DNA from: an uncultured Gammaproteobacteria bacterium
GTDB lineage: Bacteria; Patescibacteriota; Microgenomatia; Levybacterales; UBA12049
Assembly (NCBI GenBank): GCA_964635045.1
Contig: CAZWMJ010000005.1
Coordinates: 1-52,553, forward strand
Length of the DNA stretch: 52,553 nt
Direction: 5' to 3'
Shown here: piece after piece, positions 1,546 through 33,271 of the stretch
How positions within the stretch are numbered: the stretch's first letter is position 1
Layout of the letters: each line of letters opens with the position of its first letter
Position numbers and translations under genes: made by a program
The notes under the pieces: generated by a model
Told to the model about the DNA's origin: nothing
Databases searched by the model: none
The model's input: the letters and a program-made list of their open reading frames with translations, nothing else

Positions 1546-2135
1546 ATCGAAAAATCGTTTCTCCTTTTCCTTTCAAAGGCAAAAATTTGCGATTGTAAAC
1601 TTAATAAATAATCAATATCGTCATACTCTTTAATAAGACACATTTTTCGATAAGGATCAAGAGGGAATTTTTCTTTAATATTGATATTTTCAATTTCAAT
1701 AGTTTGGTTTGGGATATCAATATTAACAATTGTTTTATGATTTATTTTTACCTCAGCAAAAAGTTTATTTAAAAAAGTTTGCGAAACCTGTACGGGTAGA
1801 AGTTGATTTATTAAGGCATTATTTTTGAAAATATCGGCAAAAGAGCTGGAAATTACAGCATCAAAACCATAGTCTTTCAATGCCCAAGCAGCGTGTTCCC
1901 GGCTTGAACCAATGCCGAAATTTCGGCCCGCCGCCAGTATTTTTCCCTTGAATGTTTTATCGTTTAATACAAAATCTTTTCTTGGTTTGTTGTTTGAGTC
2001 AAAGCGCCAGTCGCGAAAAAGATGCTGGTCAAAACCTTCCCGCGTTACTGCCTTAAGAAAGCGCGCCGGGATAATCTGATCGGTATCAATGTTTTCCATT
2101 GGCAGTGGTACGCAGGTTGAGAAAATTTTCTTCAT
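1542..2135 (-). CDS. leuD: 3-isopropylmalate dehydratase small subunit
   Basis: [13 protein letters not shown] and [15 protein letters not shown] motifs; 4-nt overlap with leuB. Confidence 0.97.
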
Positions 2136-3538
2136 AGTAATTCTCTTGGGTCGGTTATGCGACCGGTTAAAGCCGACGCGGCCGCTGTTAATGGACTGGC
2201 CAAAAACGTGCGGGCACCGGGACCCTGACGGCCTTCAAAATTTCTATTTGAGGTAGAGATACAATATTTTCCCGAGGGAATTTTATCTTCGTTCATGCCC
2301 AGGCAGGCCGAGCATCCGGGGCCCCGTAGTTCAAAACCAGAATCTTTCAGAATTTTATCAATTCCCTCTTTGCGAGCTTGAGTTTCCACTTGCCTTGAAC
2401 CGGGGACGACGAAAACTTCCACATCGTCCGCTTTTTTTCTTCCTTTAACAATGTGCGCTACCATACGTAGATCTTCAATGCGGGAATTGGTGCAGCTTCC
2501 CAAAAAGACATAATCAACTTTTTGATCTTGTATTTTTTTACCGGGTTTTATGTTCATATAATTTACGGCTTTGCGAAAACTACTGCGCTGACTCTCCATT
2601 TGAAAATTATCTTCGGTGGGAATGTGTTGGCTGATTTTAATTCCCATGCCTGGATTAGTTCCATATGTCACCATCGGTTCAATGTCAGAAGCGTCAAAAG
2701 CGACCCGTTTGTCATATTTAGCCCCTTTGTCGGTAGGCAAGGTTTGCCAATTCCGCAAAGCAGAATCCCAGTTTTTTTCTTTTGGTGCAAACGGTCTGCC
2801 TTTCATGTATTGATATGTGGTTTCATCAGGCGCAATCAAGCCGCCCCGCGCCCCCATCTCAATGCTCATGTTACAAATAGTCATGCGGGCTTCCATGGAA
2901 AGATTTTTAATAGTTGAGCCGGTGTATTCCACAAAATAGCCCGTGCCGCCGCCGGTTGATATTTTGCTGATAATGTAAAGGATGATATCTTTTGACACCA
3001 CGCCTTTTCCCAATTTACCATTTACTTCAATATTCATAGTTTTTGGTTTGTTTTGCAGGATGCATTGACTGGCCAAGACTTGTTCTACTTCGCTGGTTCC
3101 GATGCCAAAGGCCACCGCCCCAAAAGCGCCGTGGGTGGAGGTGTGGCTGTCGCCGCAGACAATGGTCATGCCGGGTTTAGTAATGCCCAGCTCCGGACCT
3201 ATGATATGAACAATCCCCTGAAAAGGATGTCCCATGCCGTAAAGACGGATGCCAAACTCCGAACAGTTTTTGGTAAGTTTTTCTACCTGAATTTTGGATA
3301 ACAATTCTTTAATCGGCAGATGCTGATTTTTAGTCGGCACGTTGTGGTCGGCCGTAGCCCAAGTTCTATCGGGTCGGGCGACTTTTATTTTTCTTCGTCT
3401 TAGTCCGTCAAAAGCCTGCGGAGTTGTCACCTCGTGAATTAAATGCGCGTCTATATAAAGCGCGTCAGGATATCCAACTTTTCGCTGCACAACATGAGCT
3501 TCCCAAATTTTGTCAAAAAGCGTTCGCGGTTTATTCAT
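2132..3538 (-). CDS. leuC: 3-isopropylmalate dehydratase large subunit
   Basis: [44 protein letters not shown] and [12 protein letters not shown] motifs; Fe-S cysteines present. Confidence 0.97.
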
Positions 3539-4210: not shown

Positions 4211-5056
4211 ATGCTTGGCGAGGGACATAGAAGTATTGATTATAGATATTTTGATGAAGAAGTTGAAGGACCGTATCGAGGTATTATTCGAACTGGCAGT
4301 TATGGCTTAGTGTCGCTTGTTCGAGCGGATTTTGTACAGCAAGGAGTAGATAAGGCATTTAAGTCGAAAGCCAGATGGGGTTTGCGGTTAGGCGATTTTT
4401 TTAGCGGAGTTCGTCGTTCTTCTACGGCCGAAGCGTTTGACATAGGAGCAGTTACGCATCGGGTGATAGATGAGGGGGTAGCTAGAGAAGATGATATTGG
4501 AAGATTTCCCAGAGACGTAAAAAAAAGAAGCGATCTTATCAAACTTGCCAATATTATAGCGGGTATGGCGAGTTTGTATGGACATCGCGTTCTTCAAGAA
4601 CAAAGAACGGGAAATATTGGGCAACCTTATACTTTAGGTTTACAATTGTCCGATTTTTTGGAAGTGGTTCCGCCAGAGGTTGCCGCAAGAGTTCTTTTTG
4701 CCGCATCAGATCCTGATATCGCCCAAACAATTCTAAAAGGACAAGGCTCACTTCGAGGTCTTCGGCATATTGACGTGCAGCCTCATGCCGTTGAAGCAGT
4801 TGTTCTTTTGCCGAAAGACGCTCGGCACGAGATTTTTACACAAATGGTAGCGCTTGAGCCGGGAATAGGAGGAAGGGCAAATCGATTTTTTGGGGTGATT
4901 GCTTCCAACTGGGCAAACAGGACTTCGGATTATTGTGGCCAAACGCTCATATATCAAAACCTACAAGGCGACAGGGCCATGAGGCAAATTTTAGAAATGC
5001 AGACAGATTTAGCAGAACTTGGACCGCTTGTTAGAGGTGAGGCGGTCAGGAGTTAG
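4211..5056 (+). CDS. hypothetical protein (281 aa), opposite orientation inside the ilv/leu cluster
   Basis: Long ORF filling the trpR-ridA gap; TGcTATAAT at 4193-4201 just upstream; no recognisable motif. Confidence 0.7.
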
Positions 5057-5432
5057 AGATAAGGCCAATTGCCTCGATTTCGACAAGTGCTCCTTTGGGG
5101 AGACTTAAGACTTCAACTGTGGCACGGGCAGGTTTGCCGGTAAAAAACTTGGCATAAATCTCGTTCATTTTGGCAAAATCATTGATGTTTTTAAGATAAA
5201 CTGTGGTTTTAACCACTTTTGTCAAATCAGAACCGGCCGCCTCCAAAACAGCCTCGATATTTGTAATAACTTGTTTAACCTGATTTTCCAGCCCTTCAGC
5301 CAGACTGCCGGTTACAGGATCCATGCCGATTTGCGCCGCGCAGAAAACAAATCCTCCCGCCACCACCGCCTGTGAATACGGCCCAATTGCCTTCGGCGCT
5401 TTATTGGTTTGAATTGATTTAATTTTACTCAT
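5046..5432 (-). CDS. ridA: RidA/YjgF family enamine-imine deaminase
   Basis: [28 protein letters not shown] and LVEIEAI motifs. Confidence 0.93.
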
Positions 5433-7186
5433 GATGTTACTGCTCCCGTGCTGGCGCTTGAGACCAGTTTGGCGTATTTGGCCAAGACGCCTCTATTGTA
5501 TTTTGGTTTTGGCACCCGCCACTGACCTTTTCGTTTCGCCAGCTCACTGCTTGCCACTTCCAGATTAACTTCTCTTTTGGCCAAATCAATTGTAATTCTA
5601 TCTCCCTCTTTTATCAAGGCAATGGTGCCGCCCGCTTGAGCTTCGGGGGTAATATGGCCAATGGTGATTCCGTGGGTGCCGCCGGAGAAGCGGCCGTCGG
5701 TTATAAGCGTCACATCTTGTCCCAGACCCGCGCCCATCAGGGCAGCAGTAGGAGAGAGCATCTCCCGCATGCCCGGACCGCCTTTAGGCCCCTCATAGCG
5801 GATAACCATCACATCTCCTTTGTTAATCCTTTTTTGCAGAATAGCATCAAGAGCATCTTCTTCCCGTTCAAATATCCGGGCCGGGCCCTCAAACTTTTTG
5901 ACTTCGCGGCCGGAAAGCTTGATGATGGCTCCCTCGCGGGCCAAGTTGCCGTAGATAATGATCATGTGGTGTTCGGGTTTAGCCAACGGTTTATCAATCG
6001 GATAGATAACATTTTGACCTTTGGGGAAATCGGGAGCAGTTTGCAAATTTTCTGCCACGGTTTTTCCGGTGACCGTCAAACAATCGCCATGAATAAGTCC
6101 GGCCCGCAAAAGCATTTTCATCACCATCGGTATTCCTCCGATATTATCCAAGTCTGCCATGACATATTGACCAAAAGGCTTGAAATTGCCCAGAAGCGGC
6201 ACTTTTTTGGCAATTCTGCTAAAGTCATCAAGATTTAATTTAATTTCTGCTTCATGAGCTAAGGACAAAAGATGGAGTACCATGTTGGTGGAGCCGCCCA
6301 GAGCCAAGGCCACGGTGATGGCATTTTCAAAAGCCTTTTTGGTCATAATATCACGCACGTGAATATCTTTTTCTAAAAGATGAAAAAGGGCCTTGGCGGT
6401 TTCAATGCTGTCGCGGCGTTTTTTATCGGAAATGCGGTTTTTTTCATCCACTGCCGGATGTGAGGCGCTACCCGGAATACTCATACCCAATGCCTCAAGA
6501 ACCGAGGCCATGGTATTGGCGGTGTACATGCCCCCGCAGGAGCCGTTGCCCGGACAACTGCGGCATTCTATTTCATGAAAATCCTTTTCACTCATCTTGC
6601 CCGCCGAGTACTGTCCAATTGCTTCAAAAGTGCTAACAATAGTTAAGTCTTGGCCTTTATAATGACCCGGCAATATTGTTCCGCCATAAAGAGTGATGCC
6701 GATACTGTTGTTTCTAGCCAGAGGAATAAGAGAAGCGGGAATTGTCTTATCGCATCCTGATAGTGTTATTGCCCCGTCTGCCGCGTAGGCTTCATGCATC
6801 ATTTCAATGGAGTCGGCGATTAGCTCCCGTGAAGGAAGCGAATATTTCATGCCTTCCATACCCATGGTTTCTCCGTCGGTGACCACCGGCGTGCCAAAAA
6901 TAATCCCCTTGCCGCCCTGCTTTTCCAGCTCGTCCATTATTAAATTTCCTAAATCGTAAATATGGGCGTTGCAGGGAGTGATATTGGTAAAAGGACAGGC
7001 CACAGTTATAAGAGGTTTGGTAAAATCGTTATCTTTAAAACCTACGGCCCTCATCATGGCCCGGGCATGAGCCCGTTTTACCCAATCTTTGCCGTTTAGA
7101 CTTCCCGTCAAAGCGGTACTGCGTATTTTTAGGTCCTGGCAGTCGCAGTTTTCACAATCTTCACAATGGCCGGTATTTTTTTTCAT
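5429..7186 (-). CDS. ilvD: dihydroxy-acid dehydratase
   Basis: [46 protein letters not shown] and TDGRFSGG motifs. Confidence 0.97.
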
Positions 7187-8673
7187 ACAATCTTTTGCAG
7201 TCCGTCAAGATAAGCCTTGACCGATGCCACCACAATATCGGTATCGGCGCCAAAACCAAAATAAATGTTGTTTTTATAATTAAGCTGAATATGCACCTTG
7301 CCGATGTCGTCGCTGCCCCCAGTTATGGCCTGCACCAAATACTCTTCCAACAAAACTTTTTTGTTGACAATTTTGTTAACCGCGTTAAAAGAAGCATCAA
7401 CAGGGCCGTTTCCCGAGGCCTTGGCAGTTTTTTCCACTCCCTTAATTTTAAGCCTTATTTCTGCCGACGGCTTTGTTTTGGTACCGGAAGAGACATTAAG
7501 CGACACAAGAGCCAGACCGGTTTCAGCACCCTTTTGGCCCATCAGCACGTGTAGATCATCGTCATTAATATCCTTTTTTTTGTCGGCAAATTCCAGGAAT
7601 TTTTGATACAGACTGTCAAGTTTTTCCTGTGAGATTTCGTAGCCCAGTCTTTCCAAGTGATGGCGCAGAGCCGATCTTCCGGAACGGGCTGTTAAAACAA
7701 GTTGCGACTGAGTAATTCCCACATCCTGCGGGTTGATAATTTCGTAGTTTAGTCTATTTTTCAAAACCCCGTTTTGGTGAATACCGGAGGAGTGGGCAAA
7801 GGCGTTTCGCCCGACGATGGCCTTATTGGCCTGAACAGGCATGCGCATAAGACGGGATACAAGGCGGGAAGTTCGGGCAATTTTTTCGGTATTGATATTG
7901 GTTTTACTAGCAAGATCCTGACGAGTTTTGATAATCATTACCACTTCCTCTAACGCGGTGTTTCCCGCCCGCTCTCCCAAACCATTGACAGTTACTTCTA
8001 TTTGCGTGGCGCCATTGATAACAGAAATGATAGTATTGGCAGTGGCCAGGCCCAAATCGTTATGGCAATGAACAGAAACGATTACTTTGTCAATTCCTTT
8101 GACATTTTCAAATAAGTATTTTATTTTTGCTCCAAATTCATCCGGCAGGCAGTAGCCGGTGGTGTCGGGAATATTTACAGTGGTGGCTCCGGCTTTGATT
8201 GCTTCTTCAATAAAGCGGGCTAAAAAGGCGTTTTCCGTTCGTCCGGCGTCCATGGCGGAAAATTCCACATCGTGGGCAAATTTTTTGGCGTATTTTATTG
8301 CGTCAATGCCCTGCTGAAGAATTTTTTCTCTCGTTGAACGAAACTGATATTTAATGTGTACGTCGGAACTGCTGATAAAAGTGTGAATTCTTTTATTTTT
8401 GGCTTTTTCCAGTGAAGATGCCGCCGCGTCAATATCCTCTTTAATGGCTCGGGCAAGGGCGCAGATAACCGGCCGTCTGACTGTTTTTGAAACTTCAATA
8501 ATAGATTTGAGATCTCCCGGGCTGGAAATGGGAAACCCTGCCTCAATAATATCAACGCCTAAATCGTCCAAAGCTTGCGCCACCTCAATTTTTTCAATGG
8601 TATTTAATTGACAGCCCGGCACCTGCTCCCCGTCTCTAAGTGTAGTATCAAAAACAAAAATCTGCCGTTTCAT
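7183..8673 (-). CDS. leuA: 2-isopropylmalate synthase
   Basis: [25 protein letters not shown] and GNGPVDA motifs. Start moved to ATG 8673 (ATGA overlap with the ilvC stop); the ORF-track extension runs through repeat DNA. Confidence 0.95.
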
Positions 8674-9788
8674 TTCTTTACCTCGCCCGCCATCGCTACG
8701 CTCAGGCGTTGCGGGCGGGTCCTTTCCGGGCGAAGACCTGTACCAGACGGTACGGGTCGCAGTTCTCTCACTTTCGCTCCTGCTCTCCACATTTCTGAAT
8801 TTCTCATTTCTAAGAGTTCTTTTTCTAACCCTTTTTTGTAGTCAGGTTTACTGTTGGCTTTAATTACTACTTGCGCTTCATGTCCGTTTTTTACTTTTTG
8901 ATACAATTCCTCAAAAACCGGCTCCACCGCTTTTCTAAATTTGTGCCGCCAATCCAGCGCTCCTCTTTGAGCGGTGGTGGAACAGTTGGCGTACATCCAG
9001 TCCATGCCGTTTTCCGCAATTAATGGGATTAGGCTTTGAGTCAGTTCCTCCACCGTTTCATTAAACGCCTCGCTGGGGCTGTGTCCCATCCTTCGCAAAA
9101 TGTTGTATTGAGCTTCCATAATACCGGCCGTAGCTCCCATCAGCACTCCCCGCTCGCCGGTGAGATCGCTGAACACCTCTTTTTCAAATGTAGTTTCAAA
9201 TAGGTAACCCGATCCAATGCCAATTCCCATAGCCAAAACTTTTTCTCTCGCCTTTCCTGTGGCGTCCTGATAGAGAGCAAAACTGCTATTTATTCCCTTT
9301 CCTTCCAAAAAGAGTTTACGAACCGTTCTGCCGGAACCTTTGGGGGCTACCAGAATAACATCGACGGTTTTTGGCGGAACAATACCGGTGTGTTTTTTGT
9401 AGGTAATGCCAAAGCCATGCGAGAAATAGAGCGCCTTACCTTTTGCTAGATGCCTTTTAATAGTTGGCCAGGCTTCAATTTGTCCGGCATCGGACAGCAA
9501 ATAGGCAATAATTGTACCCCGTCCGGCCGCTTCTTCTATTTCAAAAAGCGACTTATTTGGTTTCCATCCATCAGTTACGGCTTTCTTCCAGGAGTCGCCG
9601 CCTTTTCTTTGGCCGACAATCACATTAAAGCCGTTGTCGCGCAAATTAAGAGCCTGCGCCGGTCCCTGAACGCCATAGCCGATAACAGAAATAACTTCGT
9701 TTTTAAGCGTCTGTTTGGCTTTTGAGAGAGGAAATTCACTTCTAGTTACCACTTCCTCTGCGACGTCGCCAAATTTCATTTTTGTCAT
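8670..9788 (-). CDS. ilvC: ketol-acid reductoisomerase with a repeat-derived C-terminal tail
   Basis: [21 protein letters not shown] and [12 protein letters not shown] motifs; N-terminal [10 protein letters not shown] as in Bacteroidetes/fungal-type KARI. Confidence 0.95.
8681..8720. repeat. palindromic element (CCCGCCATCGC...GCTCAGGCGTTGCGGGC family) in the ilvC 3' end
   Basis: cctcgcccgccatcgctacgctcaggcgttgcgggcgggt; both arms shared with 29281-29328. Confidence 0.8.
8735..8758. repeat. 24-bp imperfect palindrome, in frame in ilvC
   Basis: gacctgtacc-agac-ggtacgggtc (9/10 bp stem); the protein reads [12 protein letters not shown]. Confidence 0.65.
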
Positions 9789-9798
9789 AAAATCTCCT

Positions 9799-11463
9799 TT
9801 AGCTAAATTTTTTATTGAGATAATTTACCAGTCTTCTTAGTCCTTGACGCAATACATCGTCTTCGCAGCCAAACGAGATGCGGATGTGATTTTCTCCGCC
9901 CGGCCCAAAAGGCGAGCCGGGAACAACCGCCACTTTGGCTTGTTTTATTAGCTCAACAGCAAATTTTCTATCGTCAACAGGTTTGGTAATTTTGGGAAAA
10001 GCATAATAGGCGCCCTGTATGGGAGTAGATTGTAAAAATGGCGTCTTGGCTAATTCTTCCTCCACAATTTTTCTTCGCCGCACGTAAGCCTTTTTATACT
10101 CATCATAAACATTTTTGCCCTCAAGTGCTGAAAGAGCCGCGTATTGGGATGGGGCGGCGGGACAGGTAACAATGGCATCATGAACCTTAAAAATTCTGTC
10201 GATAAGTGGTTGACTGGCTACAATATAGCCGATTCTCCAGCCGGTCATGGCGTATGATTTGGAAACTCCAAAAACCGAGATGATTTTACTGCCGGCGCTA
10301 TGAAGGCTGGCAATACTGACATGTTTTTTTCCGTCGTAAACAAAATTTTCATACATTTCATCGGAGATGATAATTAAATCGTGTTTACGGGCTATTTTTA
10401 TAATATCGGTCAGTTCCTTTTTACTATAAACTTTGCCTGTTGGATTGCTGGGATTGCAAATCACTATGGCCCGCGTTTGGGGGGTGATGGCTTTTTCCAA
10501 AGATTCGGTATTTAACAGCCACCCCTCTTTAGTTTCTTCCATAGGCACATAAATAGGCGAGCGGCCGCGCAAAGCAATCCTTATTTGTGTAATATGTGGA
10601 TTGTAATTGGGCGATGGCATTAAGATATCATCCTGCGGATCAAGAATGCTTAAGAAAATTGCCATCATTGCTTCCATTGCGCCGTGGGCGACAATTACTT
10701 GAGAAGGGGAAACAGCGATGCCGTTATCCCGTTTGACCTTTTTGGCAATTGCCGCCCGCAGTGGTTCAATCCCATAGCCGGCCGTATATTTATCGGTGAG
10801 ATTTTGGTCCATTGCCCGCTTGACTGCCTGTTTTATATGAGCGGACGTGAAAAAGGATGGAGTTCCCTGAGCCAGAGAAATAACGTCCTTATTCTGTTTG
10901 GCTAATAACTCTATCTGTTTTATGACGGAAACCTCAATGGTGGAAGTAACATGCGGACTATCCACCTTCTTGGTTGGCTCTTTCTCCAAAGCAATTCTGC
11001 CCGAGCGAACAACATCCTCAATACCAAATGGTACAAGCTTAGATCTTAGATGATCAATCTCCTCTTCGGTACCTGTCTTTTCTACAATGACATAGTTTTT
11101 GCCTCTATGTGTAATATTGCTCCCTGTGCGGTAAGCAATATGCTGAATGTCCTGGGCTTCTTTCGGGCTTTTGTCTTTTACCTTAAAAAGGGCAATTTCT
11201 TTGAAAATAAGGTCTTTGTCGCCGTGCGCATGCACACTTAGCACCTCAATAATTCTTTGCAGTTGATTGGTGATTTTAGCGATAATTTCGGGATTTTCTT
11301 TGACCGCAATGGTAAAGCGCGAAACGTGTTTTTCTTCGATTTCCGAAACAGTCAGACTTTCAATATTGATTTTGCGTCTAAGAAACTGATTGGCGATATG
11401 ATACAAAACGCCCGGCCTATTTTCGGAAAATACGGTTATTGTTGTTGTTTGTTTTTGTTCCAT
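9799..11463 (-). CDS. ilvH: acetolactate synthase regulatory subunit (ACT domains) fused to a class I PLP aminotransferase
   Basis: aa 1-160: ENRPGVLYHIANQFLRRKINIESLTV and VVRSGRIAL. C-terminal part: QGTP, CNPSNPTG, SDEMY, SKSYAMTGWRIG (PLP lysine) and PGSPFG. Confidence 0.9.
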   Translation of the reverse strand: MEQKQTTTITVFSENRPGVLYHIANQFLRRKINIESLTVSEIEEKHVSRFTIAVKENPEIIAKITNQLQRIIEVLSVHAHGDKDLIFKEIALFKVKDKSPKEAQDIQHIAYRTGSNITHRGKNYVIVEKTGTEEEIDHLRSKLVPFGIEDVVRSGRIALEKEPTKKVDSPHVTSTIEVSVIKQIELLAKQNKDVISLAQGTPSFFTSAHIKQAVKRAMDQNLTDKYTAGYGIEPLRAAIAKKVKRDNGIAVSPSQVIVAHGAMEAMMAIFLSILDPQDDILMPSPNYNPHITQIRIALRGRSPIYVPMEETKEGWLLNTESLEKAITPQTRAIVICNPSNPTGKVYSKKELTDIIKIARKHDLIIISDEMYENFVYDGKKHVSIASLHSAGSKIISVFGVSKSYAMTGWRIGYIVASQPLIDRIFKVHDAIVTCPAAPSQYAALSALEGKNVYDEYKKAYVRRRKIVEEELAKTPFLQSTPIQGAYYAFPKITKPVDDRKFAVELIKQAKVAVVPGSPFGPGGENHIRISFGCEDDVLRQGLRRLVNYLNKKFS

Positions 11464-11467
11464 ATGC

Positions 11468-13153
11468 TTACTCCAAAACTATTTCATCGCAGGCAGCACC
11501 TGATGGTACCATCGGAAAAACATTTTCTTCTTTCTCGCAGACCACCTCAAGCAAGTACGCCTCTTTTGCCGAAAGAAGTTTATCTATTTCTCCATTAAGT
11601 TTTGAGCGCTTATCAACTGATTGGGCCTTAATATAAAAGCCTTTGGCAACAGCCACAAAATCAGGATTTTTTAAGTCCACAAATGAGTAGCGCTTTTCAA
11701 AAAAAAGCTGCTGCCACTGGCGGACCATGCCAAGAAAGTTATTATTCAGTATAACTATTTTTAGCGGGATTTGGTCCTGGGCAATGGTTGCCAGCTCTTG
11801 AACGGTCATTTGAAACCCTCCATCGCCGATAACTACGATGACCTGTCGATTGGGAGAGGCGATTTTAGCGCCAACGCCGGCCGGCAGGGCAAATCCCATT
11901 GTCCCCAATCCGCCCGATGTGATAAAACTATTCGGTTTTACAAAATTATAGTAGCGCGCCGCTATCATTTGGTTCTGGCCAACGTCTGCCACAATAATTG
12001 CTTCTCCTTTTGTTTTTTCCGAAAGGAGTTGTACCACTTGTACCATTTTTATCTCATCATGCTTTGACAGCATTTCCTTTTTGGTCACTTTTTCGTATTC
12101 GATTTGATCGTATTTTCGAAACTGCGACAGCCAGCCGTCGTGAGTATTTTTCTTTATTATTGGCAAAAGCTTTGAGAGTGCTTGCTTGGCGTCGGCGTTT
12201 ATAGCCACATCGGCCTTAACATTTTTATTAAGTTCGGCGCTGTCAATATCTATGTGTATTATTTTTGCCTGCCTTGCGTAATCGTCAACTTTGCCGGTCA
12301 CTCTATCGTCGAAACGCATCCCTACAGCCAAAATCACATCAGCTTTGTTAGTCAAAATGTTTGCTCCATAGCGTCCATGCATGCCCAAAAGCCCCACATA
12401 TAATGGGTGATTGGCCGGCATGGCAGAAAGTCCGTGCAGTGTTGTGCCAACAGCAATGCCGCTTTTTTCAGCAAATGCCAACACTTCTTTCTCAGCATGA
12501 GCAATAAGAATGCCATGACCTATCAGCATAAATGGCCTTTTTGCCTTATTTATAAGCTGTGCCGCCTTTTTAAGATCATTTTGACTTATCGAATAGGTCG
12601 GATTATAACCTGGAATTTTTATTGCTTTTTGCGGTTTATAATCAAAAGTTTCAATTTGCGCATTTTTGGTGATATCAATTACCACCGGTCCGGGTCTGCC
12701 CGAGCCGGCTATAAAAAATGCTTTTTTAAGAATGTACGGAATTTCCGAAGCGTTGGTTATTTGATAATTCCATTTTGCAATAGGCGTTGTTATTCCAATA
12801 ACATCTGTTTCCTGGAAAGCATCCGTGCCAACTAAGTGCGCTGTCACCTGCCCGCTTATAAAAACCACCGGCACCGAATCCAGCATGGCATCGGCAATGC
12901 CCGTAACTAAGTTGGTGGCGCCCGGACCGGAGGTCACCAACACCACTCCCGGTTTGCCTGTTATTCGGGCGTATCCTTCGGCGGCATGTGCCGCCCCCTG
13001 TTCATGCCGCACCAAAATATGGCGTATTTGTTTATTATAGTCGTACAGCGCATCGTATACAGGCATGATAGCGCCTCCCGGATAGCCAAAAATTACTTTT
13101 ACTCCTTCGTTAACGAGCGATTTACAAACAGCTTGCGCTCCTGTTATTTTCAT
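11468..13153 (-). CDS. ilvB: acetolactate synthase catalytic subunit
   Basis: FGYPGGA, RHEQGAAHAA, TSGPGATN, SGGLGTMG and GDGGFQM...NN ThDP motif. Confidence 0.97.
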   Translation of the reverse strand: MKITGAQAVCKSLVNEGVKVIFGYPGGAIMPVYDALYDYNKQIRHILVRHEQGAAHAAEGYARITGKPGVVLVTSGPGATNLVTGIADAMLDSVPVVFISGQVTAHLVGTDAFQETDVIGITTPIAKWNYQITNASEIPYILKKAFFIAGSGRPGPVVIDITKNAQIETFDYKPQKAIKIPGYNPTYSISQNDLKKAAQLINKAKRPFMLIGHGILIAHAEKEVLAFAEKSGIAVGTTLHGLSAMPANHPLYVGLLGMHGRYGANILTNKADVILAVGMRFDDRVTGKVDDYARQAKIIHIDIDSAELNKNVKADVAINADAKQALSKLLPIIKKNTHDGWLSQFRKYDQIEYEKVTKKEMLSKHDEIKMVQVVQLLSEKTKGEAIIVADVGQNQMIAARYYNFVKPNSFITSGGLGTMGFALPAGVGAKIASPNRQVIVVIGDGGFQMTVQELATIAQDQIPLKIVILNNNFLGMVRQWQQLFFEKRYSFVDLKNPDFVAVAKGFYIKAQSVDKRSKLNGEIDKLLSAKEAYLLEVVCEKEENVFPMVPSGAACDEIVLE

Positions 13154-13156
13154 AAG

Positions 13157-14086
13157 TTATACCTTTATTTTTGTGCACCACTTCTCATACTTTTTTTCCC
13201 TTCCATAAACGATGGAAAAATAAAGCTGCTGAAGTTTTGCCGTAATGGGACCCCGTTTCCCATCGCCGATGGTACGGTTATCGACCTTGGCAATCCAGGC
13301 CACTTGTACGCCGGTTCCGCTAAAGAATGCTTCATCGGCAATATAAAGCTCCGTTCTATCAATTGTTCGGACTTGTGTTTTAATACCCAAATCCTCTGCC
13401 AGTTGTAAAATAGTGCGTCTGGTTATTCCTTCAAGAATATCATCAGTTACGGGCGGGGTTAGCAAAACGCCGTCCCGCACCACAAAAATATTTTCGGCAG
13501 AACCCTCAGACAGATGACCGTCTTCTGTCAGCATGATCGCCTCGTCAAAACCCAGCTTTGTGGCTTCCTGCCGGGCAAGGGCGGAATTTATGTAGGAGCC
13601 GGAAATTTTGCCGCGGGCGGGAATAGCGTTGTCGGAAATTCGCCTCCACGATGACACCATGGCCGAAAGACCCTTATCAACCGGTAGGTATTCGCCAAGA
13701 GGCATCATATAAAGCGCGAATTCAAAGGCGGCGTCTCTTTCAAGGTTGGGCGATAGATTAGTACTGCCGGCGTAGGCAAAAGGCCGCATATAGGTATCGG
13801 TGGCCGGCTTATTGTTTTTAACAAGTTCAAGGGTAATCTTTTTGAGCTGCGCCTCATCGTATGGTATGTGCGTTCCTATAATCTTCAAAGAAGAAAGAAA
13901 CCGTTTGTAGTGATCTTCTATTCGAAACAGAGATAAATATTTACCCTTTTTATTATAGTATCCCCTAATACCGCCGAACACACCCGTGCCATATTGCAGG
14001 GCGTTAGTCATAATAGGAACATTGGCGTCCTCCGTTTTGACAACTTTGCCTTGAAAAAATATATGTGGAAAATATTCGCTTTTCAT
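13157..14086 (-). CDS. ilvE: branched-chain amino acid aminotransferase
   Basis: LQYGTGVFGGIRGY, GKISGSYINS, SEGSAEN and ILEGITR motifs; start moved to ATG 14086, downstream of the terminator. Confidence 0.95.
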   Translation of the reverse strand: MKSEYFPHIFFQGKVVKTEDANVPIMTNALQYGTGVFGGIRGYYNKKGKYLSLFRIEDHYKRFLSSLKIIGTHIPYDEAQLKKITLELVKNNKPATDTYMRPFAYAGSTNLSPNLERDAAFEFALYMMPLGEYLPVDKGLSAMVSSWRRISDNAIPARGKISGSYINSALARQEATKLGFDEAIMLTEDGHLSEGSAENIFVVRDGVLLTPPVTDDILEGITRRTILQLAEDLGIKTQVRTIDRTELYIADEAFFSGTGVQVAWIAKVDNRTIGDGKRGPITAKLQQLYFSIVYGREKKYEKWCTKIKV

Positions 14087-14089
14087 ACT

Positions 14090-14114
14090 AAAAACCCGCC
14101 CATACGGCGGGAAG
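14090..14114 (-). terminator. attenuator terminator hairpin
   Basis: Minus strand CCCGCC-GTATG-GGCGGG followed by TTTTT. Confidence 0.85.
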
Positions 14115-14149
14115 ATTTGTTGCCTTGCCAACTGGCGCACCTCCCGCCC
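14090..14149 (-). promoter_or_regulatory. transcription attenuator with mutually exclusive antiterminator and terminator
   Basis: GGCGGGAGG just after the leader stop pairs with CTTCCCGCC (9 bp, one G:U), the 5' arm of the terminator. Confidence 0.8.
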
Positions 14150-14236: not shown

Positions 14237-14884
14237 TTATCCGGTTTGGGATGCTAAAACACGTTCGTTGGACAAGCCGAAGGTGGTGCCGTGCTTTTTG
14301 AACATACTCCAATATTGTTTTTGTTTTTTCTTGCTTTTGAACATGGATAGCCATGAAGTAGCGTCTTCAATTCTCATTCGGGCGTGTTTTACAAAATTCA
14401 ATAGCCACGCGAAAAAGTTTTCATGATAAGCGCCTATTTTTGCCGGAATTTGTTCTACCACTATTTGTTTGTAGGTAATTTGAAGTTCCTGAGATTTTGA
14501 GATAAGCACTCTTAACTCAAAAAGAATCTCCTGAATTTTTTGTGTAACGCTTTGGTCTTTTTCTCTCTCAATTCTTTCTCCCGCATGCAAAATTTCCCGT
14601 CTGTAGTCAATGCCCGGTTCCACATTCCAGGCCTTTTTTTCGGAACGTTTTTCCGCCAGTTGGCTTAAATTTAATTCCTGTCCTTCCAAAAGATCTCCGC
14701 CACTGCGCGTTCCGTCACTGCGTTCATGTCCTCCTAACATTTGATTCCAAATACTATTTACCGATTCTTTGGCAAAATCAGAAGTAAAAGATCGGGCAAC
14801 TGCGCCGGGAATAGACTTTACATTCTCAAAAGAGTCTTGCTCGACAAGTCTTTCTGTTTTTACTTTTGTTTTATTACTTTTCAT
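14237..14884 (-). CDS. conserved Microgenomates hypothetical protein (DUF5660-like)
   Basis: C-terminal YWSMFKKHGTTFGLSNER and GIDYRREI motifs; family name from recall. Confidence 0.6.
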   Translation of the reverse strand: MKSNKTKVKTERLVEQDSFENVKSIPGAVARSFTSDFAKESVNSIWNQMLGGHERSDGTRSGGDLLEGQELNLSQLAEKRSEKKAWNVEPGIDYRREILHAGERIEREKDQSVTQKIQEILFELRVLISKSQELQITYKQIVVEQIPAKIGAYHENFFAWLLNFVKHARMRIEDATSWLSMFKSKKKQKQYWSMFKKHGTTFGLSNERVLASQTG

Positions 14885-14898
14885 TATGGGTTACAATA

Positions 14899-15738
14899 TC
14901 ACAAATTTTTCAGAAAATCAAGTGTTTTTTGCTGACGCAAGATACCGGCCAAAAGATATCTGTTTGCTTCAAGGGCTTTTCTCTCTCCAGCGCTTTTGCC
15001 TTTTTGGACAGCTTCTTCGATTTCTTTATCATTTACCGTAATATGTTCATCCTCGGCAATTTTTTGCAGAGCAAATTCCAGTTTAAGATCGCCCTCCGCT
15101 TTTCTTTGATATTCGTCCCTAAGAGACTGAGGCGTTCTTCCGGATGAAGAAAGATACTGATCAAGGCTAAGGCCTAATTTTTTAACGTCGTCCAATGTTT
15201 GCGACAAAAGTCTTTCCACCTGCTGATCAAGAAGAATTTGAGGAACAACGACAGTCAGACCCCCTATAAGAGCGGCAATAATATCTTCAAACTTTGTCGG
15301 TAGAGGCTCCTTGCCCGGGACAATAATTTTACTTTTGGCTGTGACCGTTTGAATATTTTTTTTATAATCTCCAAGTTGAATTTCGGGGGTCTCGCAGGTT
15401 AACGCATAAAATTGCCAATCGCGCGGGGAAGTGATGGGATCATCCAGTTTCTCTACGTGAATTTTAGGAGTAATAATGGGTTTAATCGAATGTTCTTTGA
15501 TAGCCTCCAAATAATACTGAGGAAGCAGTTTTTTGAGCACTTCTTCTTTTACTTCTTCCCGATTTATTTTTTCCTCGGCAATTTTTTTTGGGGCCTTACC
15601 TTTTCTAAAACCGGGAACTGAGAGCGATTTAGCCTTTTTTACCAGCTCTTCTTCGAACGCCTTTTTTACGGCGTCATTGGGAATTGTTACGGTCAATTTT
15701 ACTGTCCCGTCTGATAATTTTTGCAATGCAGATATCAT
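14899..15738 (-). CDS. tig: trigger factor, short form (ribosome-binding plus C domain, no PPIase)
   Basis: GFRKGKAP signature; 279 aa; start moved to ATG 15738, outside the tRNA. Confidence 0.85.
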   Translation of the reverse strand: MISALQKLSDGTVKLTVTIPNDAVKKAFEEELVKKAKSLSVPGFRKGKAPKKIAEEKINREEVKEEVLKKLLPQYYLEAIKEHSIKPIITPKIHVEKLDDPITSPRDWQFYALTCETPEIQLGDYKKNIQTVTAKSKIIVPGKEPLPTKFEDIIAALIGGLTVVVPQILLDQQVERLLSQTLDDVKKLGLSLDQYLSSSGRTPQSLRDEYQRKAEGDLKLEFALQKIAEDEHITVNDKEIEEAVQKGKSAGERKALEANRYLLAGILRQQKTLDFLKNL

Positions 15739-15744
15739 ATCAAG

Positions 15745-15825
15745 TGCGGGCGGAGGGATTTGAACCCCCACGAGTTTCCTCACAAGGTTCTAAACCTTGC
15801 GTGTCTGCCATTTCACCACGCCCGC
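15745..15825 (-). tRNA. tRNA-Leu(TAG)
   Basis: GCGGGCG acceptor, CAAGG-TTTAGAA-CCTTG anticodon arm, long variable arm, GGTTCAAATCC. Confidence 0.95.
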
Positions 15826-15858
15826 CCACCTTTGCGCGCTTGATGCAGTATACACGAT

Positions 15859-16416
15859 TTATAAAGAAATGTGAAGTGCGCTTGAAGGGTTATTTTCGGC
15901 AAATCGGTCTATTTTGTTTATTGTGCCTTCAACTCTTTGCGCCCACGTGGGAGAGGCGGAGTATATTCTGCCAATGGAATACACATCTTCGACTTTCCAC
16001 GAGTTAATATACTGTTCGCGCAGCCCTTTGGAGACAACTTCAATGCCTTCGTCAAACGAAGAAAATCGAATGACATTGTCTCCATATATACCCCATCCCC
16101 ACGCATTGTATGAATTGGTAGGAATTTGTTGGCCATAGGTTGACTCAATAGCCGAGATAGCCACCAGCAGTTTCCAGTCAAGTTGATATTTATCGGCGAC
16201 TTTTACAAATGTTTCGGCAGAAGGAGTCAGCGGCGAATCGTATTGTTTAAGATATTGTGTAAGTATTTTTGCGCGGACGTCTTCTTTCATAACAGGAGAA
16301 GCAGGCATGAGAACAGCAGATGAACCTGATGCTTTTTGCTCGGCGTATATTTTCTGTGGATTTAAAATTGAGATAGATATGATGACAAACAAAGTTATTG
16401 CAACTTTTATCTGCAT
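15859..16416 (-). CDS. membrane-anchored lysozyme-like/glucosaminidase-domain protein
   Basis: N-terminal TM; DWKLLVAISAIESTYG and YNAWGWG; paralog of 16515-17069; start moved to ATG 16416. Confidence 0.65.
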   Translation of the reverse strand: MQIKVAITLFVIISISILNPQKIYAEQKASGSSAVLMPASPVMKEDVRAKILTQYLKQYDSPLTPSAETFVKVADKYQLDWKLLVAISAIESTYGQQIPTNSYNAWGWGIYGDNVIRFSSFDEGIEVVSKGLREQYINSWKVEDVYSIGRIYSASPTWAQRVEGTINKIDRFAENNPSSALHISL

Positions 16417-16418
16417 AT

Positions 16419-16460
16419 AAAAAAATCCTAACGTACGCCGTTTATGACATACCTTAGGAT
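16419..16460 (-). terminator. terminator-like hairpin with U-tract occupying the 5' UTR
   Basis: ATCCTAA-G-GTATGTC-ATAAAC-GGCGTAC-G-TTAGGAT then TTTTTT; ends 2 nt before ATG 16416. Confidence 0.6.
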
Positions 16461-16469
16461 CTGATAGGG

Positions 16470-16498
16470 ATTGTATCACATAACTATAGGTTTGTCAA
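16470..16498 (-). promoter_or_regulatory. sigma70 promoter
   Basis: TTGACA (16498-16493), 17 nt, TACAAT (16475-16470). Confidence 0.75.
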
Positions 16499-16514
16499 GT
16501 CCTTTACTATGGGG

Positions 16515-17069
16515 TTATAGCTGATTCATGAAGTGAGTGACGCCTCTTGCCCAACTGCCGTCGCTTGGAGGAGTGTAAACCTTCATTATTTGCTCAGGCG
16601 TTTCCAAACCTTTTTGTTTGTATTCCTTTGCCAGCGTCTTTGTTACAATATCTATCCCTTCCTGATAACTTTGAAATTTTCTTACTTTGTTGCCATAAAT
16701 ACCAAATCCCCAGCAATTGTATGAGCCTAATGGAGCTTTTTTACACAAGTTAGATTCTTGCATTGCAATGGCAGGCAGAAGACGAAAATCAATGCCATAG
16801 AGCTCGGCGGCATCTATTATATTTTGAGCATAAGGTTGAAGAGGAGACTGGTATTTGGCAAAAAATTCACTAATTGACTCCAAGCGATTATCTTTTCCAA
16901 CCACATCGCTTGTCAGAACATTTTGTGTGGCCGGTAAGGCGGCGAAGGCAATACTTTTTGGCGCATCGTTATTCTGTTTATACGACAGAAAAAGAAAATA
17001 AGTCAGAGTGAAAACAAAAACAATCGGCGCTAAAAGTACAAAAGTTACGAGCAGGTATAGCCTTTGCAT
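16515..17069 (-). CDS. membrane-anchored lysozyme-like/glucosaminidase-domain protein
   Basis: N-terminal TM; IDFRLLPAIAMQESNL and YNCWGFG. Confidence 0.65.
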   Translation of the reverse strand: MQRLYLLVTFVLLAPIVFVFTLTYFLFLSYKQNNDAPKSIAFAALPATQNVLTSDVVGKDNRLESISEFFAKYQSPLQPYAQNIIDAAELYGIDFRLLPAIAMQESNLCKKAPLGSYNCWGFGIYGNKVRKFQSYQEGIDIVTKTLAKEYKQKGLETPEQIMKVYTPPSDGSWARGVTHFMNQL

Positions 17070-17157
17070 GAATAATTCATCCTCGCATACTTTCGCTCTG
17101 TTGTCAAGTTTTCAAGGCTATGATAGAATTAGAATATAGGTGTATGGGCATGTGGCG

Positions 17158-30094: not shown

Positions 30095-30904
30095 TCACAT
30101 TTCCGAGACAAAGGAAGCCTCTCGTATCACTTCACTATGTTTTTGCGATGGCAGCTTTAGAACATTGAGACACTCCTTGTCATGGCAAATATCTTTCGCC
30201 AGCATTATTCTATTTTTGGAGAGTGTTTGTTTTTCTTTTTCAGAAAGAGAAGTCAGCGCGGTAATTGGAGAAAGGCCCGATTTCTCAATCATATCTCTCA
30301 AAGAGTCTCCTGTCGGATAGTTCCAGCTAATTACTTTCATTCCCATACAAAGTGAGTAAGCAATAGCATCCTGGGTAATTTTGGTATTGGTTATAAGCCA
30401 CGCCTGATTCAAATTGTTTCGTTCGATAAGATCATTAAAGCGGGCTTTCGTATATAAAGCGACATGCACATTGGTTTTTGCGCCTGCCAAATTATGATAC
30501 TTTGCCTCAATCATTATTTTCTCACTATTTTTTTGGGCAACCACATCAACTTCATGCGTGATGCATTTTCCCTGCATGATGTTTCTGACAGAGGTTTGGT
30601 AGCCAAACGCAGTCAACAGACGACCTAAAAAATCCTCAAAAGGGTAGCCGGTTGGGCCAAGGGCCATGATGGCTTGTTTGAGGCTAAACTTGGCAGCAGT
30701 ATAAGGATGAGAACTCCGCCCTAAAAATTCCACAATATGACCGTAAATTTCCGAGGTGCTCACTCCCTCATAAAGTTTTGATTTGACGTGAGAGAGCACC
30801 TGATTTTGCAATTTTACCGGAACACCTGCCCGACGGATGCCGCTTATGATTTTTTCTTCGCTATAAGGCTGTCTTTCTCCATCGGCTTTGGTGACAAAAA
30901 CCAT
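30095..30904 (-). CDS. ATP-cone domain plus Mrr-like PD-(D/E)xK nuclease domain protein
   Basis: VTKADGERQPYSEEKI ATP-cone start; HEVDVVA..IEAKYH nuclease motif. Confidence 0.8.
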   Translation of the reverse strand: MVFVTKADGERQPYSEEKIISGIRRAGVPVKLQNQVLSHVKSKLYEGVSTSEIYGHIVEFLGRSSHPYTAAKFSLKQAIMALGPTGYPFEDFLGRLLTAFGYQTSVRNIMQGKCITHEVDVVAQKNSEKIMIEAKYHNLAGAKTNVHVALYTKARFNDLIERNNLNQAWLITNTKITQDAIAYSLCMGMKVISWNYPTGDSLRDMIEKSGLSPITALTSLSEKEKQTLSKNRIMLAKDICHDKECLNVLKLPSQKHSEVIREASFVSEM

Positions 30905-30919
30905 ATCACCTATAGTTTC

Positions 30920-33271
30920 TCACAAACTTTGAAAAAATAAAAGGTCGCTTTGCAGTACGTTTAATTGATTATTTGATAAATTGTGATCGTCATCCTGATA
31001 TAGTTTAAGCTGTGATTTTTTATTCATGCTCAATAAATCATTGAAAAGTTCAATTGACCATTGATACGGTACGGTTTGATCATCTGTGCCGTGATCTATT
31101 TGAACGGGTATTTTTATATCGCTAAGATACAAAAGAGGAGATAAGCTGGACCAAAGTTTAGGATTATCAGCTGGGCTGCCCAAAATTTTAAAGGTGGTGA
31201 AATAAGGATATGGTCTTTCTTTTGCCTCCGGAAGAAGTCCTAAATGAGATTTTTCAAACCACTTGATTGGGTCTGTAACCGGCGCCCACAGGACGGCGCC
31301 TCTTATTTTACCCACTAATTCGGGTTTTTTGCCCATTACTTCCAATACTTTTAAGGTCACTTCCCCGCCCATGGAATGCCCCCATAAATAAATCTTATTG
31401 GCGTTGGCATTTGATAAATTTCCAATTGAGGTTACAAGATTAAGTACATCGATAGGATAGGCAAACCGCATCAGCGCCGTGTCCACAACTTCCGACTGAC
31501 CGTTTCCCCGAAAATCCGGTTTTAAGACCATAAAGCCATTAGATGCAAACCAATCGGCAATAGTTTTATACGAGGAGACAGTGTCGTAGTTTTTGGGAGA
31601 AATATAGCCGTGATTTAACACGATTACCGGATAGCCTTCTTTGGGCATTTTCGTTTTGGGAATATTAAGAAGCGCGTAAAGCTTCAAGCCGTCAGACATA
31701 TAGGAAACTATGGAGGAAGAAAATAGTATGGACGGCGGAAGATCTTTTTCAACTTTAATTTCACTGCCAATATAGTCTCTATGCTGTAATGTTTCAATTG
31801 ATAAAGCAAATAGTTTTACCTGTGTCGGCTTCTTTTGCAGATGTAAATTTCTCTTTTCAAAAACTATAAAATCGTCGTGTTTAAAAATTTCTACATAATT
31901 TTTATCTTTCTTCAGTTTTTCGGCAATATCTTTTTGCGCATCGAGTGTCGGCTGAGCAAAAGAATCGTTAAGTAAAAACAAAATTATGTCCGCCCGATCT
32001 ATTCCCACAGGGATGGTAAAAATTTTTTGTCTGCGGGAAAGATGCGAGCCAAGATTATTTGTGGCGGCAATGCTGTAGCGCTTTGGAATGCCATCCAGAA
32101 ATTCGCTAATAACAGTCTTGTTTGGCAGGGGTTTAACGAACATATCAATGCTGGCATTTTTTGCTAAAGGCAATGGACCAAATAAATATGCTGAGAGAAT
32201 AGTAAAAAAGATTAAATATATATAAAAATAAAATTTGGGAATTTTAGGAAACAATTTTATAAGTTTTCTTACACCGAAAATAGCAGAGACAAAAATAAAA
32301 GGAGTAATGACTGCGCTATATTGGTAATAAATTTGATGAAGTTGAGTGTTGTTGCTAAGCAAATTAATTAATAAATCAGGCACGGCAAATGCTAAATATA
32401 AGGGGGATAAAAGCGAAACGAACCCCAAAGGTATAAAAAGTTGTTTTATATATTCAATTCTTCCATCCTCAAGAATTTTCAAAAAAATTTTATGAGGAGA
32501 TAGAGACACATTTTTAATTACTTCTATTGGTGAATTTCCAAATTCCGAATAGTAGGATAGCGCAAAATGCTGCCCGTTTGCATTTTGAGGGATTACAATA
32601 GATACCAAATAAAAGAATAAAGCTAGGAATGTAATTATTATTAATAATCCCAAAGTTTTCGTTCTTTTCGCTTTTTCAAAAAATAAAGGAATCCCAAAAA
32701 TAGAAGTTGCGATCCACACTTGCTCTTTTGTAATACCTGAAAGAATAAGAAAAGCAGTCATCAACAAATAATTCCGTTTTATCAAAAAATAAAAAGATGC
32801 CAGAAGAAGAGTTGTCGCTAGAGTAACCGCGTGAAAATCATATAAATTGGTGTATTGTAGCGCAGGACTCATTAGAAATAAAAAGCTAAATATTAATGCA
32901 AAATGTTTATTTTTGAGAATGCTCTTTGCTATTAAAAAAATGAAAATAGCTCCAAGGGCAAGAATAATAGTTTGTGTTAATAAAAGAGTTTTTGGGTGAG
33001 ACCACAACAGGTATAATGGAGATAATAAAATAAGCATGAAGTCTGCATGGGCAGATAATCTGGAAATTATAAGTCCGTTGTCGCTGAAGCTTTGGAAAAT
33101 CCTTCCGTTAACTGTATTCCATACCGTCTGATCCATATTTCCCAAGTCATAACGACCCGTATAAAAATTGTCATAGCGTAAAAAACTAGCAACTGTGAAA
33201 TAAGCTATATAAATACAGATTAATATTCCAAGAACAAATTCGTGTGATTTTATGAGGCTTTTAATTTTCAT
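30920..33271 (-). CDS. DUF2079 (GT-C-like) membrane domain fused to an alpha/beta hydrolase (S9-like)
   Basis: YDLGNMDQ, YDFHAV, KEQVW and YQYSA in the N-part; NHGY, WGHSMGG, DQTVP and DDHNL in the C-part. Confidence 0.8.
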   Translation of the reverse strand: MKIKSLIKSHEFVLGILICIYIAYFTVASFLRYDNFYTGRYDLGNMDQTVWNTVNGRIFQSFSDNGLIISRLSAHADFMLILLSPLYLLWSHPKTLLLTQTIILALGAIFIFLIAKSILKNKHFALIFSFLFLMSPALQYTNLYDFHAVTLATTLLLASFYFLIKRNYLLMTAFLILSGITKEQVWIATSIFGIPLFFEKAKRTKTLGLLIIITFLALFFYLVSIVIPQNANGQHFALSYYSEFGNSPIEVIKNVSLSPHKIFLKILEDGRIEYIKQLFIPLGFVSLLSPLYLAFAVPDLLINLLSNNTQLHQIYYQYSAVITPFIFVSAIFGVRKLIKLFPKIPKFYFYIYLIFFTILSAYLFGPLPLAKNASIDMFVKPLPNKTVISEFLDGIPKRYSIAATNNLGSHLSRRQKIFTIPVGIDRADIILFLLNDSFAQPTLDAQKDIAEKLKKDKNYVEIFKHDDFIVFEKRNLHLQKKPTQVKLFALSIETLQHRDYIGSEIKVEKDLPPSILFSSSIVSYMSDGLKLYALLNIPKTKMPKEGYPVIVLNHGYISPKNYDTVSSYKTIADWFASNGFMVLKPDFRGNGQSEVVDTALMRFAYPIDVLNLVTSIGNLSNANANKIYLWGHSMGGEVTLKVLEVMGKKPELVGKIRGAVLWAPVTDPIKWFEKSHLGLLPEAKERPYPYFTTFKILGSPADNPKLWSSLSPLLYLSDIKIPVQIDHGTDDQTVPYQWSIELFNDLLSMNKKSQLKLYQDDDHNLSNNQLNVLQSDLLFFQSL

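Follow-up and report, generated by a model that had tools for sequence, protein, structure and literature searches.

An acetohydroxyacid synthase regulatory subunit fused to a class I aminotransferase is conserved in the ilv/leu operons of Microgenomates

Outside plants, where they form tandem repeats, the known regulatory subunits of acetohydroxyacid synthase (AHAS), which catalyses the first step towards valine, leucine and isoleucine, are small free-standing proteins. Valine response in the Escherichia coli subunit IlvH is altered by mutations at N11, G14, N29 and T34, and ACT domains also serve as allosteric sensors in SerA, PheA and aspartate kinase. The Microgenomates, very small bacteria of groundwater, are generally regarded as having little amino-acid biosynthesis. 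Here we describe a gene, ilvH~AT, which joins an AHAS-type small subunit to a complete class I aminotransferase in one reading frame and lies within an ilv/leu operon on a 52,553-nt stretch of contig CAZWMJ010000005.1 (the window, whose numbering is used throughout). The protein encoded by ilvH~AT has 554 residues and a C-terminal enzyme, as against about 90-190 residues for free-standing bacterial IlvH/IlvN. No published description of an IlvH-aminotransferase fusion was found in the literature searched, the GapMind 2026 preprint included, and ilvH~AT combines two well-known families in a domain architecture that is new.

The gene occupies positions 9799..11463 of the minus strand, from an ATG start through 554 codons to a TAA stop (9799-9801), with no internal stop in the translated open reading frame (ORF). 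The ACT domain of the AHAS small-subunit type spans residues 7-80 (11224..11445, minus strand), where it is recognized by the Pfam ACT_AHAS_ss and ACT models and by matches in the PDB; the ACT_AHAS_ss match itself (PF22629, residues 10-75) has an E-value of 1.9e-15 and 57 bits against a cutoff of 27. A second, ACT-like domain, ALS_ss_C (PF10369), follows at residues 88-161 (10981..11202, minus strand), covering positions 1-73 of the 74-position profile with an E-value of 5.9e-17 and 62 bits against a cutoff of 23. A linker of 17 residues (162-178; 10930..10980, minus strand), poorly conserved and variable in length, then leads to the fold type I aminotransferase module at residues 179-554 (9802..10929, minus strand), within which Aminotran_1_2 (PF00155) is matched over its full length (residues 192-545, profile positions 1-361 of 361, E 8.4e-67) and the lysine that binds pyridoxal phosphate (PLP) is K402 (codon 10258-10260). 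The initial annotation had described a single 554-residue ORF made of IlvH, a linker and a complete class I aminotransferase with its PLP lysine, and the ORF list and Pfam bear this out, adding that the gene is on the minus strand. In the AlphaFold2 (AF2) model the mean predicted local distance difference test score (pLDDT) is 91.8 and the predicted template modelling score (pTM) is 0.76. The linker, with pLDDT of 58-73, is the sole weak stretch in a chain that otherwise scores about 90 or more (about 90-97 in the transaminase module), so that the linker is predicted to be disordered and each module to be confidently folded. No solved structure spanning both modules was present among the Foldseek matches.

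The fused frame recurs both in the source environment and across a large family. The junction was checked in assembled Logan contigs, not raw reads, from four groundwater metagenome runs. All sampled words of the junction region were present in the four runs, and the contigs tile positions 9700-11600, the junction (residues 162-178, nt 10930-10980) included, without a single differing letter, insertion or deletion. A protein search returned at least 118 full-length fused proteins from NCBI, JGI, ENA and Logan assemblies, each a distinct cluster at 90% identity, with lengths of 552-601 aa, 50-89% identity to ilvH~AT and the same three domains. An N-terminal ACT domain is present in 120/120 best matches, 118 of which also have ALS_ss_C, and there is no free-standing transaminase among these 120. 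Averaged over the 118 homologues, identity to the window protein is 57% in the ACT domain, 46% in ALS_ss_C and 57% in the transaminase, falling to 21% in the linker. Between reference positions 160 and 179 the homologues have 18-32 residues (median 26), always in frame. The probability that faulty sequencing or assembly, or a frameshift, merged two genes in this contig is therefore negligible: the Logan unitigs do break in the linker region (10910-10947), yet they overlap consistently, nothing else was found in favour of an artefact, and both the agreement of the four runs and the independent homologues, whose linkers vary in length and sequence while the frame is kept, speak against it. Taken together, the fused frame in at least 118 clusters and the invariant junction contigs exclude a stop codon, a frameshift or a chimera, and the fusion claimed by the initial annotation is real and conserved.

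The unitig nodes at 10210-10257 and 10910-10947 are short and 3-4 times as deep as the nodes beside them, and a low-depth variant contig is present in run X1, which points to closely related strains co-occurring in the same groundwater samples rather than to a mis-join. An internal start producing a free transaminase was also considered. A methionine occurs in the linker of only 38/118 homologues and at no conserved position, therefore a conserved internal start is unlikely; the window protein has no methionine between M1 and M218.

The N-terminal module resembles AHAS regulatory subunits in domain order, effector-site residues and gene position. Its matches in the PDB are the Arabidopsis small subunit (6U9H, the best), Thermotoga maritima (2FGC), Nitrosomonas (2PC6), and E. 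coli IlvH (2F1F) and IlvN, and ACT_AHAS_ss is followed by ALS_ss_C as in this family. Residues N15, G18, N33 and T38, which we take to correspond to N11, G14, N29 and T34 of E. coli IlvH, are kept in 117, 118, 117 and 118 of the 118 homologues, and at the level of sequence the earlier proposal of an AHAS-type IlvH module with its valine-site positions is upheld. The gene lies directly downstream of ilvB, which encodes the AHAS large (catalytic) subunit (11468..13153, minus strand; TIGR00118, 728 bits against a cutoff of 538) and ends 4 nt before the ATG of ilvH~AT, with a GGAG in its last codons (11471-11474) 7 nt before the start codon. The two genes are co-transcribed and probably translationally coupled. 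We examined nine fused loci (the window, L081, L083, L085, L087, L088, L092, L093 and L094), and ilvB is directly upstream of the fused gene in 9/9, while no second AHAS small-subunit gene was seen in the nine operons. Because it is the sole small-subunit gene next to ilvB, the N-terminal module is almost certainly, as judged from these comparisons, the AHAS regulatory subunit of these organisms.

In the transaminase module K402, D368, N340, Y371, R410, R528 and Y226 are invariant in the 118 homologues, and the catalytic residues have identical counterparts at the aligned positions of 1DJU and 1BJW. In aminotransferases of this fold these positions form the Schiff base (K402) and contact the pyridine nitrogen (D368), O3’ (N340 and Y371), the phosphate (R410) and the α-carboxylate of the substrate (R528). 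With all catalytic residues invariant the module is therefore apparently a competent enzyme and not a degenerate scaffold. The closest sequence in the PDB is the aromatic aminotransferase of Pyrococcus horikoshii (1DJU/1GD9; 270 bits, E 2.3e-79), followed by the aspartate aminotransferase of Thermus thermophilus (1BJW, 220 bits), a Phormidium aspartate aminotransferase and a Streptococcus aromatic aminotransferase, with the alanine aminotransferase of Pyrococcus furiosus and prephenate aminotransferases further away. Foldseek gave target-normalised template modelling scores (TM-scores) of 0.88-0.93 to the aspartate, aromatic and prephenate aminotransferases of subgroup Ib. None of the NCBIfam cutoffs is passed by the module. 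The best scores against cutoff are those of GntC (327/415 bits), aminotransferase A (321/575) and asp_aminotase_Arch (302/550), while further aspartate aminotransferase models reach 247/624 (PRK08361) and 223/617 (PRK06107) and the alanine-type models 259/534 (PRK08363) and 183/647 (PRK08175, alanine transaminase). A kinship to AvtA and AlaA, the enzymes named in the initial annotation, was not recovered: the AlaA structure 4CVQ is found at E 1.5e-39 and rank 25 among the PDB matches, compared with 2.3e-79 for the Pyrococcus aromatic aminotransferase, and there is no AvtA-named model among the 25 best families.

A clue to the substrate comes from the position of Thermus K109 (PDB 1B5O is the K109S mutant), presumably the lysine to which Asp, Glu or prephenate binds through its distal carboxylate. 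We take K169 of the Arabidopsis prephenate aminotransferase, mutated in 5WMK, to occupy the same position. The T84V/K169V variant of the Arabidopsis enzyme is reported to have lost its Asp and prephenate activities and to have used Ala and Trp as donors instead (PMC10875765). In the HMMER alignment Thermus K109 is aligned with M263 of ilvH~AT (codon 10675-10677), and across the 118 homologues this position holds Ile (109), Thr (4), Met (3) or Leu (2) and never Lys. The family also has invariant polar residues of its own, namely Q199 in the motif AQG(I)PSF (GEPDF in relatives), H260, E264, H290 and Q293. A canonical subgroup Ib aspartate/prephenate aminotransferase was considered and rejected, the distal-carboxylate lysine being replaced in 118/118 and the aspartate aminotransferase models scoring far below their cutoffs. 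Since this lysine is replaced and no curated threshold is passed, a neutral or hydrophobic substrate appears likelier for the fused transaminase, which we offer as a lead from the alignments and not as a determination.

Where a source is named, the fused homologues come from Candidatus Levybacteria, Roizmanbacteria, Woesebacteria or a "Patescibacteria group bacterium", the first three all belonging to the Microgenomates group. In a search with the N-terminal 168 residues against 1.84 billion representatives at 50% identity, the whole fused family is one representative (P0115) and the next matches are IlvH proteins of the ordinary free-standing kind, 157-190 aa long and 42-52% identical. The closest of these unfused proteins (P0122, locus L089) is encoded in an operon of the order ilvB-ilvH-ilvC-ilvA-ilvD-ridA...FTR1-ilvE, nearly that of the fused locus L083, and no transaminase apart from ilvE is present in the 10.7 kb around it. 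The motif RRK(I)NIESL is common to the fused proteins and this closest unfused IlvH subfamily. For the other module, contigs of species-representative genomes were scanned with two transaminase peptide motifs and 80 loci among the matches listed were inspected. The nearest unfused transaminases among these listed matches have 32-40% identity and come from many phyla, with no Patescibacteria among them; an ilv or leu gene is nearby in 8/80 of their loci and absent from 72/80, and ilvH is near none of the 80. Because the family collapses to one 50% representative and its closest IlvH relatives are unfused with no transaminase nearby, the fusion probably arose once, the simplest reading of the sequences being a single event at the base of a Microgenomates clade.

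Other IlvH fusions were sought among the 150 best 50%-identity representatives, and nine long ones besides P0115 were scanned, of which seven are plant-type tandem repeats and one (P0248) has a single IlvH module only. The remaining protein, P0226 (343 aa, on a single JGI contig of 1.4 kb), has IlvH (ACT and ALS_ss_C) with an FMN_dh fragment behind it in the same ORF and is likely an assembly or gene-calling artefact. Two short variants of the present fusion, P0113 (472 aa) and P0056 (476 aa), are without ALS_ss_C, and hardly any sequence separates their ACT domain from the transaminase. P0113 occupies the usual slot between ilvB and ilvC and is found on three contigs from independent assemblies (among them L085 6500-7918 and L086 3090-4508). 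The L085 operon that encodes this variant has leuA cut to a 94-residue LeuA_dimer remnant, preceded by an ABC_tran gene and a 412-residue gene without a Pfam match (8910-11211), and is possibly decaying.

On balance, and with modest confidence, we favour the view that ilvH~AT encodes a bifunctional polypeptide specific to Microgenomates (CPR/Patescibacteria), in which a valine-sensing AHAS subunit that binds IlvB is tethered to an accessory transaminase for neutral substrates. In this arrangement the ACT module would dimerise, bind and activate the IlvB encoded immediately upstream, and carry the valine-binding site, while the flexible linker of roughly 18-32 residues would let the transaminase modules homodimerise outside the AHAS complex. 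Since homodimers are formed by ACT domains as well as by class I transaminases, a transaminase dimer would be expected on the AHAS holoenzyme. The fusion would thus place one transaminase per regulatory subunit, in a fixed 1:1 ratio, at a pyruvate-consuming enzyme. The transaminase itself would handle neutral or hydrophobic amino and oxo acids (alanine/pyruvate, branched-chain amino acid (BCAA) keto acids, or aromatic or methionine-type substrates) and would serve beside IlvE as a second, accessory transaminase of the ilv/leu pathway, exchanging for example alanine and pyruvate with BCAA keto acids or 2-oxoglutarate.

Several points weigh against this view. Specificity is not settled by a single hydrophobic residue at the K109 position, and the Pyrococcus aromatic aminotransferase, which has Asn there, still uses 2-oxoglutarate. 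The AF2 model is of a monomer and as such is silent on docking to IlvB, and the support for all members of the family comes from sequence comparison and predicted structure. The near-identical unfused operon at L089 is without a transaminase, which means that the pathway as such can do without one. Finally, the comparison covers loci rather than whole genomes, and the fused transaminase could be the only general transaminase of the cell.

The last two points lead to the main rival, a neutral "Rosetta-stone" fusion, in which a housekeeping Asp, aromatic or Ala transaminase of a small-genome organism, lying next to ilvH, was joined to it by loss of a stop codon, each half working on its own and the tether bringing co-expression without kinetic or regulatory coupling. 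We regard this as rather unlikely, though it deserves serious weight. Its best support is the unfused sister operon just mentioned, and it would also account for a linker that lacks conservation, varies in length and is probably disordered according to the AF2 model, for nearest characterised kin that are general Asp and aromatic aminotransferases, and for operons that lie in amino-acid "superclusters" beside trp, thr and leu genes, a fitting place for a general transaminase. A coupling of no consequence is however harder to reconcile with the absence of fission, the ACT domain being N-terminal in all of the 120 best matches, over three candidate phyla and down to 50% identity. Nor was a locus with adjacent separate ilvH and transaminase genes found among those examined, and the closest unfused transaminases among the matches listed are at most 40% identical and stand apart from ilvH in every one of the 80 loci.

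It is improbable, in our judgement, that the ACT domain is mainly an allosteric sensor through which BCAA levels control the attached transaminase. The conserved ligand-site residues of the ACT domain would suit such valine gating, as would the loss of ALS_ss_C from P0113 and P0056 and a pTM compatible with some fixed geometry between the modules, but the N-terminal module is of the specific AHAS small-subunit type and the sole one next to ilvB, hence required by AHAS, and a rigid allosteric interface is hard to square with a linker so long and variable. AHAS regulatory subunits with a single ACT domain, E. coli IlvM and those of Xanthomonadales among them, are known to work (bioRxiv 10.1101/2024.10.14.618325), so the short variants need no new role. 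The bifunctional, IlvB-binding subunit that we favour could be extended to an AHAS-transaminase metabolon, a conjecture that we put forward with little confidence. The aminotransferase dimer would move the amino group of Ala, or of another neutral amino acid, to BCAA keto acids or 2-oxoglutarate and free pyruvate at the AHAS active site, and Val bound at the ACT dimer would stop both reactions. If so, a single sensor would govern the entry of both carbon and nitrogen to BCAA synthesis in an organism whose nitrogen metabolism is minimal.

The surrounding genes form a tight minus-strand operon in the order trigger-factor-like, DUF5660, ilvE, ilvB, ilvH~AT, ilvC, leuA, ilvD, ridA, Trp_repressor-family, leuC, leuD and leuB. 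As the initial annotation had noted, a separate ilvE is present, encoding a class IV branched-chain aminotransferase (13157..14140; NF005146, 375 bits against a cutoff of 279) that scores above the NCBIfam cutoffs for such enzymes. Downstream of the ilvH~AT stop an AGGAG Shine-Dalgarno sequence precedes ilvC, the ketol-acid reductoisomerase gene (8670..9788; TIGR00465, 323 bits against a cutoff of 226), and Pfam and NCBIfam matches identify leuA (7183-8673), ilvD (5429-7186), ridA (5046-5432), a Trp_repressor-family gene of 191 codons (PF01371; 3563-4138), leuC (2132-3538), leuD (1542-2135) and leuB (493-1545), all on the minus strand. Across the nine fused loci ilvE, ilvC, ilvD, ridA and leuA-D are the usual companions. 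The threonine dehydratase gene ilvA (PALP and Thr_dehydrat_C) is in the operon at 6/9 loci (L083, L085, L087, L088, L093 and L094) and is missing only at the window, its close relative L081 and the short contig L092. In the window, a 52.6-kb piece of the genome, there is no ilvA, thrC, aspartate kinase or second class I transaminase. The initial annotation had proposed that the fused aminotransferase might supply 2-oxobutyrate in the absence of ilvA; because ilvA is present in six of the nine fused operons, compensation for its loss does not fit the family. We know of no class I transaminase that can make 2-oxobutyrate from threonine.

Some variation was seen at the edges of these operons. A trigger-factor-like gene (Trigger_N and Trigger_C, 275-294 aa, no match to a peptidyl-prolyl isomerase domain) followed by a DUF5660 gene is a conserved pair directly upstream of the ilv operon in five loci of the fused lineage (window 14237-15783, minus strand; L081 5707-7224; L083 6611-8149; L085 2232-3735; L094 3682-5140). 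Between ridA and leuC the window has the Trp_repressor-family gene together with a 281-residue ORF on the plus strand (4211-5056) without a Pfam or NCBIfam match. In L081 leuC comes directly after ridA, and the two genes therefore look like an insertion into the window operon. The mechanically called leuA ORF (7183-8790, minus strand) begins with GTG at 8790 and overlaps ilvC by 120 nt, but the L081 homologue and the overlap indicate that leuA likely starts at ATG 8673, overlapping the stop of ilvC in an ATGA. The L081 gene (12725-13870), 92% identical, was called as 381 aa and is without the LeuA_dimer regulatory domain kept in the window gene. In the Roizmanbacteria operon L088 a second, free-standing class I aminotransferase of 416 aa, which shares about 20% identity with the fused one, is encoded between ilvA and ilvD (15822-17072).

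Elsewhere in the window three ORFs on the minus strand have notable domain content. A 515-residue ORF (40659-42206) has the unusual combination of a DFP domain (CoaB-type, residues 6-178) with a class II aldolase/adducin domain (residues 253-334). A 269-residue ORF (30095-30904) has an ATP-cone domain (residues 3-75) and then an Mrr-type restriction endonuclease domain (residues 86-184), and a 783-residue ORF (30920-33271) has a DUF2079 membrane domain (residues 32-426) and an α/β-hydrolase domain of the S9/S33 type (residues 527-781). A separate S9/S33-type hydrolase of 354 aa is encoded at 49827-50891.

As far as the literature searched shows, a regulatory subunit with a complete second enzyme attached is apparently undescribed. 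The fusion has been kept in at least three candidate phyla within the Microgenomates and marks a lineage that retains a full ilv/leu operon. As a natural example it lends itself to tests of enzyme tethering or of substrate channelling at the pyruvate node, and it also gives a compact construct for engineering. The database names "acetolactate synthase small subunit" and "aminotransferase" each miss half of the protein.

Among characterised transaminases the Pyrococcus enzyme (1DJU/1GD9) is the most similar, sharing the best fold match (TM-score 0.93, 38% identity), a short N-terminal S-x-I-[RK] lid and the PLP site, but it is unfused and has Asn at the K109 position, where the fused family has Ile or Met together with its own invariant residues. 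The subgroup Ib enzymes of Thermus (1BJW), Arabidopsis (prephenate aminotransferase, 5WMH) and Rhizobium (6F35/6F77) have the same fold and catalytic residues (TM-score about 0.9) and keep the distal-carboxylate lysine (K109/K169), whereas the 118 fused proteins have Ile, Met, Thr or Leu at this position. AvtA and AlaA of E. coli have the class I fold in common with the fused transaminase and are otherwise distant relatives, although its substrates may possibly be of the same type, neutral amino acids with pyruvate. For the N-terminal module the free-standing IlvH proteins of E. coli (2F1F), T. maritima (2FGC) and Nitrosomonas (2PC6) share the ACT and ALS_ss_C domains, a gene right after that of the catalytic subunit and the valine-response positions, at 30-50% identity to ilvH~AT. 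They differ in lacking the approximately 390 extra C-terminal residues that make up a whole enzyme, and free-standing IlvH outside the closest subfamily reads RRG(Y/F)NIESL in place of the RRK(I)NIESL of the fused lineage. The plant and algal AHAS small subunits (Arabidopsis 6U9H) are likewise enlarged by fusion; whereas these add a second ACT and ALS_ss_C repeat, ilvH~AT adds an unrelated enzyme.

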